A stretch of DNA of 64,000 bases from Sulfurospirillum sp. (GTDB taxonomy: Bacteria > Campylobacterota > Campylobacteria > Campylobacterales > Sulfurospirillaceae). Made by a program: the position numbers. The stretch spans positions 1 through 64,000 of the forward strand of contig JASFYR010000013.1 of NCBI GenBank assembly GCA_045047115.1. Reading direction: 5' to 3'. Each line of letters opens with the position of its first letter. The stretch's first letter is position 1. Shown piece by piece: positions 27,001-30,000 of the stretch.

Positions 27001-30000
27001 ATATATGAGGCTGTAGGAATATTGTATTTTTTTAGAAAATTTTTCATATATATTTTCGAGCCCTCTAGTCTCGAAGCCTCTTTGGAGGAGCCAAAAATCA
27101 GAAGTCCTCTTTTTTTAAAAACATCTACAATACCATCCACAAGCGGAGCTTCCGGACCCACAATAGTCAAATCTATATTTTTTTTCAGGGCAAAATCAGC
27201 CAATTTATCAAAATCTGTTATATTTATGTTCTTTGCAAACTTATCGGTTGCACCATTTCCCGGAGCCATATAGATATTTTGCACATCTTTGTCTCTATTT
27301 AACGCAAGAGCTATAGAGTACTCCCTGCCACCACCACCAATTATCAAAATATCCATTGAGAATTCTCCTAAAAAAATAGCAGCACATGTAAAACATGTAC
27401 TGCTAACCCAAGTGGGCGTTCGTTTATTCTTTGGCCCTAATTAAGCCAACGATGCGCAGGACTAACTTTGCCTTTAGGCTGCGGATTCTAATCTCGCTAG
27501 AGACTCAAGCAAAAACACAGACACACCGGCAAAATACCCGTTCCGCAAATAACAATATGTTGGACCCTCATAAAACGCTGTCGCTTCACTCAGATACAGT
27601 GTAATTATAAATCAATTATGCTTAAGATAATATTGAATGTAGCTTTTTGCCAACTCAATACAACTCAAAATTGTCTGTTTTTCAGATATACTTTTTTTTA
27701 TGCTTGAAGGAATAGAACCTGCCGTAACTTCACCTATTGAAATCGCCCTATATGTATCGTTCCATTTGAAGTTTTTCAAAAAACATTTGACGGTTGAAGG
27801 AGATGTAAATATGATAATAGAATTATCTTTTGGTTTCTTATCTTGAGTATAGGCTCTGCATGTAGTCTCATACATAACTTCTTCTTTTAGATGAATTCTA
27901 GCATTTTTTAATATCTGATTCAGCTTTGAAGTTACCTCTTTGGCTCTTACGAAAAGAACTTCTTTATTCTTCAAGCTCTCTTTTATCTCTTGTGCAAAAA
28001 GATCCCCATAAGAGTTTTTAGCAGTATAGACTAGATTTGCATTATATTTTTTGATCTCTCTTGAAGTGCCTTGTCCGATGGAGTATATCTCTTTTTTTAT
28101 CCATGTTTTGTCTATTTTATCTATCGCTCTAACTCCATTTTTTGAGGTAAAAATCAAAGCATCATAGGGATCAAGATCAATCTCTTTTTTAAAAAAATTG
28201 ATCCTGATCATAGGCAAATTTACTATATCTTCATATTTATCATCATTTAGAAGATATATTTTATCCAAATCTTACTCCCATTCTATGGTAGAGGGTGGTT
28301 TTGAACTTATGTCATATACTACTCTGTTGATTCCTTCAACTTCATTTATGATTCTGCTGCTCATTCTCTCTAGCAATTCGTGTGGCAAATGGGCAAAAGT
28401 AGCTGTCATCCCGTCAACGCTCTCTACAATTCTAACACAGATTGTATTGTCATAAGTCCTGTTATCCCCCATAACTCCTACACTTTTAACATTTAACAAA
28501 ACCGTAAAAGCTTGCCATGTTTTATCATAGTAACCGCTTGATCTTAGCTCTTGGAGCATGATTACATCGGAGCGTCTAAGTATCTCTAAATCTTCACTCT
28601 TAACTTCTCCCATAATTCGAATAGCCAGTCCTGGTCCTGGAAATGGATGTCTTGCTATCATCTCTTTTGGAATTCCAAGCTCAAGTCCGAGAGCTCTCAC
28701 TTCATCTTTAAAAAGTTCTCTTAACGGCTCTATGAGCTCAAACTTCATCCAATCAGGAAGTCCACCAACATTATGGTGCGACTTGATAGTTTTACTAGGA
28801 CCCTTCACAGATACTGACTCAATCACATCAGGATAGAGAGTGCCTTGAGCAAGATATTTTATATTATCATGTTTTTTTGCCTCTGCTGCAAAAAGCTCTA
28901 TAAAAGTATGACCGATTATTTTTCTTTTCTCTTCAGGATCAATCACACCTTTTAGGCGGGTCAGATAGGTCTCTGTAGCATCAATTGTAATGAGTGGAAT
29001 TTTAAGTTTTGTTTTGAACATATTTTCCACATCTTCTCTTTCGTTTGCCCTGAGAAGTCCAGTGTCGACAAATATAGCTACAAGTTTATCTCCGATAGCT
29101 TCGTTCAAAAGTGCTGCCACAACAGAACTGTCAACTCCTCCACTAACCGCGCATAAAACTTTTCCGTCTTTTACAGTGGAACGAATTTTCTCCATCTGTT
29201 CTTTTGCAAACGAGCCCATGTTCCAAGTTGTTTCACAACCGCAGATATACTTGGCAAAATTTTTAAGTATCTCTCCTCCATACACACTGTGTGAAACTTC
29301 AGGATGAAATTGCAAAGCATACATCTTCTTCTCTTCATTGGCAATAGCAGCATATGGAGAGTTATCAGAGTGTGCAATTTTTACAAATCCATTTGGCAGA
29401 GTCTCGGCTTTATCTGCGTGAGACATCCATACTGTCTGGTTATTTTGTGTATTTTTAAATATCGGACTAACCACACCATTTAATTCATCAAACTCTATAT
29501 TTGCCTTTCCATACTCGTGATGCAAAGCAGGAACTATCTCGCCTCCAAAATAGTCGATTAAGAGTTGCATTCCATAGCAGATACTTAAAATTGGCAAACC
29601 TAATTCAAAAATCCCAACATCTGCCCTATAGGCATCTTCATCATATACTGAAGCAGGACCACCTGAGAGTATAATGCCCTGTGGGTTTTTCTTCTTTATA
29701 TTTTCTATAGGCTCATTGTAGGGCAAAATCTCACAATAAACTTTCTCTTCTCTCATTCTTCTAGCTATAAGCTGCGTATATTGTGAGCCAAAATCCAGCA
29801 CTACAATAGGGGTATGTTTCATTTTATTGTCCCCTTTTTATGGAAGTGAATTCCAAAAAAATTCCTCGCGACTGAAGCACGAGCTGACGCTCTGTATAAT
29901 TTCATTTTTATTTCTCCTTTGCCTGCAAAAGGCATCTTAAATTTTTATCTGCTTAAAGATATCTTTTAAAAATCTTTAAAAATTTCAAACTGCACATACC

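Follow-up and report, generated by a model that had tools for sequence, protein, structure and literature searches.

A dispersed, structured repeat of about 80 nt stands before dozens of genes in the Sulfurospirillum genome G000 (2.14 Mb, 34.8% GC), and comparison with related genomes showed that orthologous sites have acquired it, lost it or had it replaced, and that it has multiplied there in tandem. Our results were best explained, with somewhat more confidence than doubt, by a non-autonomous selfish repeat that is joined into new sites by short end homology and is then filtered for translation of the downstream gene. The window, which is the whole stretch of DNA analysed (64,000 nt, C13:1-64000), contains one such unit directly before guaA and a second array at its left end. 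The features concerned are as follows.

29823..29905, minus strand: repeat unit of 83 nt, SD-bearing class (profile match, sequence)
29878..29894, minus strand: hairpin 1, 6 pairs, a single base bulging from its 3' arm (structure shared by 167 of 179 units)
29859..29873, minus strand: conserved core AGTCGCGAGGAATTT (sequence, word search)
29835..29861, minus strand: hairpin 2, 12 pairs, very variable in sequence (27 nt in 153 of 179 units)
29831..29836, minus strand: new Shine-Dalgarno (SD) word AAGGGG, 8 nt 5' of the guaA ATG (sequence; putative translational use)
29819..29905, minus strand: 28-codon upstream ORF whose TGA overlaps the guaA ATG (sequence, frame bias; translation putative)
29914..29919, minus strand: upstream SD AAGGAG, now serving the upstream ORF (sequence)
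29900..29948, minus strand: remnant of an older long-arm copy, its 3' half in decayed form (local alignment)
28272..29822, minus strand: guaA, GMP synthase, 516 aa, 3' of the repeat (ORF call)
29966..31315, minus strand: co-directional upstream gene, 449-aa membrane protein (ORF call)
1..132, minus strand: second array, two units running off the contig start (word and profile search)
about 120-165, minus strand: long-arm remnant preceding the second array (sequence)

On the minus strand, positions 29905-29817 read ATGAAA, hairpin 1, AGTCGCGAGGAATTT (29873-29859), hairpin 2, AAGGGGACAATAAA and the guaA ATGAAA, with the old and the new ATG 83 nt apart. Since both ends are ATGAAA, the unit can equally be drawn as 29817-29899. 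In G253, the closest genome, it is present as an exact 83-nt tandem duplication. The ORF at 28272-29822 is taken to be guaA on the basis of the earlier note and of sequence motifs, and the 449-aa upstream membrane protein is presumably an NhaD-type antiporter. The sequence bore out the upstream ORF of 28 codons that had been read from the old ATG to the TGA of the guaA ATGA. Local alignment of the decayed remnant with the long-arm copy at the guaA site scored 55 for G308 (at most 44 after shuffling) and 53 for G304 (at most 43), and the empty guaA sites have only 12-19 nt between the upstream stop codon and the start. Judged from the sequences, the "old" SD-ATGAAA is the end of this decayed earlier copy and not the ancestral host start.

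Across G000, the word search found 28 exact, 6 one-mismatch and 1 two-mismatch copies of the core, and a 29-copy profile gave 80 matches at E<=0.01 (76 at <=0.001) and none in the reversed genome; the 83-nt repeat with two hairpins described in the earlier note is therefore real, with the reservation that the copies are kin and the counts overstate their independence. The 80 matches grouped into 68 arrays, and 20 of the 82 contig ends carry one. Of 58 arrays with a gene on the downstream side, 56 run in the direction of that gene; the other two cases are a copy within the RNase P RNA and a gene mis-call at rplL. The upstream gene was co-directional in 54 of 57, nearly all arrays lying within co-directional gene runs. 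The claim that copies always precede co-oriented genes held for nearly all arrays, but some copies end away from gene starts. No array (0/68) was seen within a gene body, and in-frame protein insertions of the RPE type were absent; the copy at C11:27956 gives one open in-frame N-terminal extension. The G-rich replication strand carried 53 of the 68 arrays vs 1301 of 1973 genes (p 0.049). Gene names for which no search is stated are presumed from the sequences.

Comparison of filled and empty sites revealed the mobility of the repeat. Among 14 genus genomes, the guaA site was truly empty in 5 and held full or variant units in 6; G040 and G310 had short inserts, and in G100, which had been cited as an empty site, the 3' half of the repeat was present. 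Read by eye, guaA in G100, G040 and G310 is preceded by ORFs of 16-19 codons ending in ATGA. From G253, 55 of the 70 matches were compared, yielding 34 arrays with flanks, of which 30 could be aligned to G000. At 15 of these 30 syntenic sites G000 had no core (about 11 were cleanly empty), and the 15 sites filled in both genomes often carried unrelated variants or different unit numbers. At locus L233 the insertion measured exactly 83 nt and the upstream flanks were identical, and at L383 two units had entered cleanly at ATGAA. Because its presence at orthologous sites is patchy and the 83-nt indels are clean, the repeat moves, in agreement with the proposal that it is mobile, and arrays of 1-4 units and half copies showed rapid turnover. 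No presence/absence difference was caught among 4 distinct, non-identical pairs of near-identical strains (at least 88%), so the activity may lie in the past. G000 and G253 share the same 146-nt guaA spacer without a single difference, against 59% agreement at third codon positions; strong selection by the host would account for this identity as well as a recent transfer would. The same genes were filled repeatedly across species, a pattern that old inheritance followed by loss would also give.

The repeat showed a clear preference for certain start codons. Of 82 gene families, 75 had ATGA and 48 had ATGAAA as the gene-side start, vs 333 and 107 of 609 ordinary starts (crude gene calls), and the empty orthologues already had ATGA in 23 of 31 cases. 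In 21 families whose empty orthologue has a codon 2 other than Lys, the filled gene kept the host codon in 11, read Lys in 8 (4 of these with poorly aligned N-termini) and read otherwise in 2, and none of 10 Lys codon-2 starts was lost upon filling. When 11 non-Lys pairs at >=85% identity were considered, the host codon 2 was kept in 8. Of 13 cases with a surviving upstream start, 7 had the host codon downstream, a single one had it upstream and 5 had it on neither side. This codon-2 comparison of filled and empty orthologues indicates that the junction floats within the spacer and ATGA(AA), most often 5' of codon 2. The idea that the ATGAAA start is the target was therefore retained as a preference for ATGA, but its fixed insertion point after ATG-AAA was not supported; the repeat does bring its own SD, but not always its own start, as the gene often keeps the host codon 2. 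Locus L167 was left out of the empty-orthologue, frame and SD counts as a chance match.

The flanking duplications were mostly short. At five lepA loci, exact repeats of the gene's own lepA end measured 23, 26, 27, 36 and 51 nt, and 28 of 30 lepA loci sampled from the family of those five had no unit. A fixed target-site duplication was not found, the upstream and downstream sequences matching at a modest 3.29 vs 2.99 of 6 nt. Some copies ended at ATG or TGAAA words other than starts. A full unit was present in helix P12 of the RNase P RNA in 13 of 48 parsed genes, including that of G000 and those of 11 of 25 genomes of the sister genus g2, and further RNase P genes contained the long arm alone (5) or remnants (4). 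Other copies were located directly before the 5' end of 16S rRNA or in the spacer, and one lay antisense against the end of tRNA-Cys.

In the explanation that we favour, the repeat would be a non-autonomous selfish element of about 80 nt, a single-stranded copy of which would be joined into a new site by short homology, with the spacer and ATGAAA of the repeat pairing with the AT-rich spacer and ATGA of the target. Such joining would let the junction float over a few bases and would leave a duplication, usually of 4-13 nt but reaching about 58 nt, so that the floating junction and the duplications would both come from it. As candidate catalysts we consider the recombination or transformation machinery of the host and the action in trans of an HUH enzyme resident in the genome. 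The SD-bearing classes, which adjoin the start codon, would take over from the ribosome-binding site that they displace, and the displaced SD-ATG would turn into a short ORF that is kept in the ATGA-ending frame and hands ribosomes to the gene. The SD-less classes survive 5' of the host SD or in tolerant RNA helices.

Selection on the repeat works at the RNA level, as shown statistically by the position and frame of the units. The last unit of an array adjoined the start codon in 234 of 253 cases for the SD class and in 4 of 40 for the SD-less class, and 25 of the latter preceded a separate host SD. Genes 3' of the repeat appear, as far as their sequences tell, to stay readable through its own ribosome-binding site. 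Of the 68 single units that have both an SD and a start upstream, 49 were in the ATGA-ending frame, 43 of them open to the stop; counted once per family, 40.2 of 55 were in this frame vs 26.6 when the left and right lengths were permuted (p about 0.003). Upstream starts lacking an SD, used as the control, showed no bias (9 of 21). The left and right lengths offset each other, as in 27+56, 24+56, 28+55 and 25+55. Upstream ORFs that begin at the old start, as proposed in the earlier note, are coupled to the gene at a rate above that expected by chance, and this frame bias is the strongest, indirect evidence that the upstream ORFs are probably translated and coupled to the gene.

The anatomy of the repeat was counted on 179 distinct units, which run from an AT-rich linker through hairpin 1, CTTY-AGT-(variable)-GAATT and hairpin 2 to AAG-NNN-ACA and a spacer. 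Additional forms were seen with a long-arm hairpin 2, as were loose repeats of the hairpin 1 module. The single-sequence fold of the guaA copy was not above shuffles (z -0.63 as RNA, -0.29 as DNA), and the structure of the repeat therefore rests on covariation. Four of the six pairs of hairpin 1 were altered on both sides, and in the hairpins of 27 aligned class I copies 90.3% of the cells were paired, a level reached by 0 of 500 shuffles (slid controls, at most 58%) and inflated by the relatedness of the copies and by the drawing of the structure from the same 27. The middle of the core differs by class (GAGAG, GAGAT, GCAAT, AGAGCGT), jointly with the 3' motif, and the base before GAATT covaried with the base after AAG (G-G 143, T-A 30, G-A 6). 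Hairpin 2 variants were exchanged freely between classes; the AAGG classes carry the SD word and the AAGA classes do not. In hairpin 2, sense-strand wobble was G-T in 135 cases vs A-C in 30, an excess that could partly reflect transcription-linked mutation, and the fold energy was lower on the sense strand in 39 of 40 sampled units. Energy models predicted that in a competing fold hairpin 1 can be engaged by the core. A likeness of the core to the sarcin-ricin loop was considered, but no sarcin-ricin word turned up in the assembly or the repeat loci.

This structure would also suit a module selected by the host as RNA, of the REP2/CREN kind (a translation enhancer, a processing or stabilising signal, or a conformational switch), which spreads by gene conversion and natural transformation since it is useful for expression and not parasitic. 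We consider such a module possible and rather doubtful. The strong covariation, the joint change of core and 3' motif across freely exchanged hairpins 2, the lower sense-strand energy and the two predicted competing folds of the 5' half all speak for it, as do the identical guaA spacer in two species and the almost exclusively sense placement of copies within operons, many of them in G000 before ribosomal-protein, dnaK and secY genes. It is contradicted by the functional diversity of the downstream genes (117 unrelated families), by the sister genus g2, which lives with 0-3 copies, by the rapid turnover of arrays and half copies, and by the copy antisense to a tRNA end. Promoter words were rare, TATAAT occurring in 1 and TA(T/A)AAT in 6 of the 179 units, and the U-tract 3' of the alternative hairpin was not conserved, both of which count against the module as well. 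One 9-of-12 promoter site overlaps the guaA copy; shuffles reach the same level. A scan of the guaA copy found an alternative hairpin with a U-tract, but an attenuator was rejected as a general feature, since a tract of at least 5 T was present in just 130 of 179 units and the pairing was mostly missing in class II. A classical MITE was likewise rejected, as comparison of the ends of one copy, that at guaA, showed no terminal inverted repeats and there was no fixed-length duplication.

A bolder form of the selfish explanation, which we put forward tentatively and expect to be wrong, is an element without an enzyme of its own that homes to start codons: a structured strand would pair its end with starts and be copied by host proteins. 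That strand might, no less speculatively, be the transcript or DNA taken up by natural transformation, and insertion could, as a guess of similar standing, build a bicistronic cassette of old SD, short ORF, ATGA and new SD. If this were true, a homing cassette, perhaps with a two-state RNA fold, would rewire the translation of dozens of core genes.

Mobilisation by known enzymes was also examined. IS200/IS605 elements have a fixed junction at a 4-5 nt target and are not known to make a target duplication, and the guide at the foot of their hairpin covaries with the cleavage word. A miniature element of this family, or one dependent on RAYT/TIRYT, which is the type named in the boldest reading of the earlier note, would move by peel-and-paste at antisense TTCAT (sense ATGAA), and in our view is unlikely. 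Two imperfect hairpins near the ends fit it, host codon 2 lies mostly on the gene side, where insertion 3' of TTCAT would leave it, the TIRYT repeat consensus resembles GGGGACA, the end of class I, and Y1 genes were present in 14 of 14 genus genomes (three in G000, besides an IS110 gene). TTCAT is the target motif of ISGst5 in the accessible text of 10.1101/2023.03.14.532601. The chemistry of the family is nevertheless disfavoured by the floating junction, by duplications of up to 23-58 nt and by the failed guide test, in which the candidate guide RAAG and the end word did not covary (ATGA 29/37, GTAA 14/9). Just 1 of 30 Y1 loci had a repeat copy within 1.5 kb, and that copy heads an unrelated gene. 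The TIRYT gene flanked by GGGGACA, the one word that it has in common with the repeat, was present in G100, which has no strict core, and was not found in G253, which has 38; a second, conserved TIRYT clade had matches in 54 of the 61 family genomes, among them 26 of the 28 repeat-poor g2 genomes, and was missing from G040. The wobble pairs, favouring the sense strand, also weigh against such mobilisation. IS200/IS605- or RAYT-type mobilisation thus failed the junction, guide, flanking-copy and co-occurrence tests; the hairpins alone clearly fit, the replication-strand bias being borderline (p 0.049).

Other enzymes did not track the repeat either, and no circular form or intermediate of it came to light. 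IS110 occurred in 3 of 14 genus genomes and did not follow copy number. The 49 ORFs near copies that had no G000 homologue included one TnpB, about 550 nt from the copy within an RNase P gene, and one integrase fragment, neither with flanking repeat halves as far as visible. An RNA-templated element, the transcript of which would pair through its 3' end with a nicked or stalled ATGAAA site and serve there as a template for DNA, as in target-primed reverse transcription, would account for the sense orientation, the RNA-type wobble, the floating junction, the variable duplication length and 5'-truncated copies such as that at guaA in G100, but is likewise unlikely, since 3'-truncated modules are common too, reverse transcriptase was absent from G000 and G253 (both 100% complete) and RVT_1, found in 20 of 61 family genomes (g1 7/13, g3 3/14, g2 10/28), showed no link to copy number.

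The repeat has spread among free-living relatives of Campylobacter. The strict core was present in 8 of 301 order genomes, and by a looser pattern the copy number across 61 family genomes ranged from 0 to 95 (g1, 10-95; g3, 5-45; g4, 9-29; g2, 0-3). Named records sharing the core were assigned to Sulfurospirillum, Campylobacteraceae, Campylobacterales, Arcobacter and Nitratifractor. Families f16, f4 and f20 had small numbers of true hairpin copies in each genome; f6 genomes had up to 10 pattern matches, with a class I copy confirmed in G130, and in the large families f12 and f26 none of the matches listed had a hairpin, so that they are apparently due to chance. Two Acidobacteria matches were left out of all counts, L040 because it has no hairpin context and L058 by analogy. 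Viral contigs, plasmids and phages gave no repeat match. The covariance models of Rfam 15 showed no family match (best E 0.81, on the guaA copy), with 0 matches at E<=0.5 among 12 repeat loci.

The family is apparently undescribed: nothing relevant on this repeat or on start-codon targeting was found in the literature searched, which comprised few subscription papers, and a kindred repeat may be among the families depicted in PMC3733652, where Sulfurovum is included. A repeat bearing an SD and an ATG is not a new kind in itself, since the accessible text of PMC3184786 describes Neisseria REP2 (CREN) and Borrelia IR-A/IR-B as two stem-loops with a promoter, an RBS and an ATG before ORFs. Like REP2/IR-A, the present repeat is dispersed, has no terminal inverted repeats, contains two internal stem-loops and places an RBS and ATG directly before unrelated ORFs. 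It differs from them, compared by description and not by sequence, in length (77-92 vs 120-150 nt), in its head-to-tail arrays and SD-less sister classes, in its frame-selected coupled upstream ORF, in its copies in RNase P RNA and rRNA leaders, and in lying mostly within operons with no promoter word; for want of the promoter it was not filed with REP2/IR-A.

Rickettsia RPEs and CGTC-type REPs are likewise palindromic and without a dedicated transposase, as far as the accessible parts of PMC3733652 and PMC3049150 describe them. According to the same sources, RPEs lie in frame inside proteins and CGTC REPs are mostly inverted dimers 3' of genes, unlike the present repeat, which is strictly head-to-tail and at starts; the tolerance inside structural RNA genes, seen here in RNase P, is shared with RPEs. 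The Bacillus cereus bcr1 repeat is also non-autonomous and transcribed, with a two-arm structure kept by compensatory changes, patchy presence between relatives and short flanking direct repeats, but its direct repeats are fixed at 5 bp, the duplications here being variable, and no SD/ATG role is reported for it in the accessible text of PMC3184786. IS200/IS605 miniatures and RAYT/TIRYT repeats resemble the present one in their hairpins near both ends, in the TTCAT target word (IS200/IS605) and in a GGGGACA-like word (TIRYT), as given in the accessible parts of 10.1101/279083, 10.1101/2023.03.14.532601 and PMC3733652; the fixed junction, guide covariation, enzyme-flanking copies and co-occurrence of those systems have no counterpart here. 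The accessible part of PMC2775950 also belongs to the comparison literature.

RBS-bearing repeats being known already, what is added here is that selection for the rescue of translation can be measured. The accessible text of the reviews (PMC3184786, there for REP2 in particular; PMC3733652; PMC3049150) poses as an open question by what route REP2, RPE, the CGTC REPs and similar repeats without a transposase spread. In the present family, dozens of orthologous sites can be compared in the filled and the empty state, with the classes with and without SD as a built-in control. An insertion trap could easily be built from a start codon cut off from its SD. The repeat shows a way into the normally closed space inside operons, which is to mend the broken ribosome-binding site and keep the displaced start coupled. 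Its practical effects are the copies at contig ends, a longer RNase P RNA and misleading start-codon calls.

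The 146-nt spacer in front of guaA (29823-29968 in the window; locus L221) was identical throughout in the source genome (G000) and its closest genome (G253), except for the duplication of one unit, whereas the third positions of guaA were 59% identical between the two. Such a spacer may reflect either recent transfer or strong selection. In the core of the repeat (29859-29873 in the window, minus strand), the middle was usually a GNRA-type word, preceded by AGT and followed by GAA. A core with this middle may resemble the sarcin-ricin loop, and no rRNA copy for that comparison was found in the assembly or the loci.

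The repeat was also present within RNase P RNA genes:
G000:C9:162528-162927, RNase P RNA gene with the repeat in helix P12 (162659-162739)
G253:C1 (L244), 2.5-kb contig, TnpB gene adjoining a divergent second gene for RNase P RNA

In the P12 copy, the 3' end of the repeat formed an 11-base pairing with the preceding host sequence. The RNase P RNA gene of L244, a contig that is probably foreign, also contained the repeat, which was flanked by TTGAAA on either side.

The Y1 (HUH) and recombinase genes and their surroundings were as follows:
G000:C7:19779-20540 (L003), TIRYT-type Y1 gene between comFC and gyrA
G000:C3:14588-14920 with flanks (L002), second TIRYT gene
L001:1000-2020, IS200/IS605 element with TnpA and a TnpB-like frame
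G000:C9:126187-126654 (L305), single IS110-family recombinase gene

The Y1 gene of L003 was bounded by inverted repeats of GGGGTCAG, and it looks like a domesticated HUH enzyme, because its close relatives were found across the family, mostly as one per genome. On each side of the second TIRYT gene, several repeats containing GGGGACAG were observed in inverted orientation. In the IS200/IS605 element, TnpA looked intact, the TnpB-like frame was interrupted by a stop, and the end hairpin showed no relation to the start-codon repeat. No copy of the repeat lay near the IS110-family gene among the matches listed in the G000 profile search.

Variant forms of the repeat were found at three loci:
L075, hairpin 2 variant with a loop insert
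G000:C9:65163-65260, hairpin 2 variant with a loop insert
G040:C1:526790-527055 (L153), SD-less array of four units with a 74-nt period, in another genome of the genus

The extra structured insert in the hairpin 2 loop was about 35 nt long and had nearly the same sequence at both of the first two loci. Downstream of the L153 array, no start of a 50-codon ORF was found within about 145 nt. Toward the 3' end of L037, another structured repeat, distinct from this one and about 95 nt long, occurred as two tandem copies; it terminates in a hairpin resembling hairpin 2. The lepA-comFC junction of family f16 (L361, L360, L362, L365, L374) was also used by other repeat families: in G206 it carried a palindromic dimer that is probably CGTC-like, and in genus g85 it carried longer inserts that presumably resemble RPEs.
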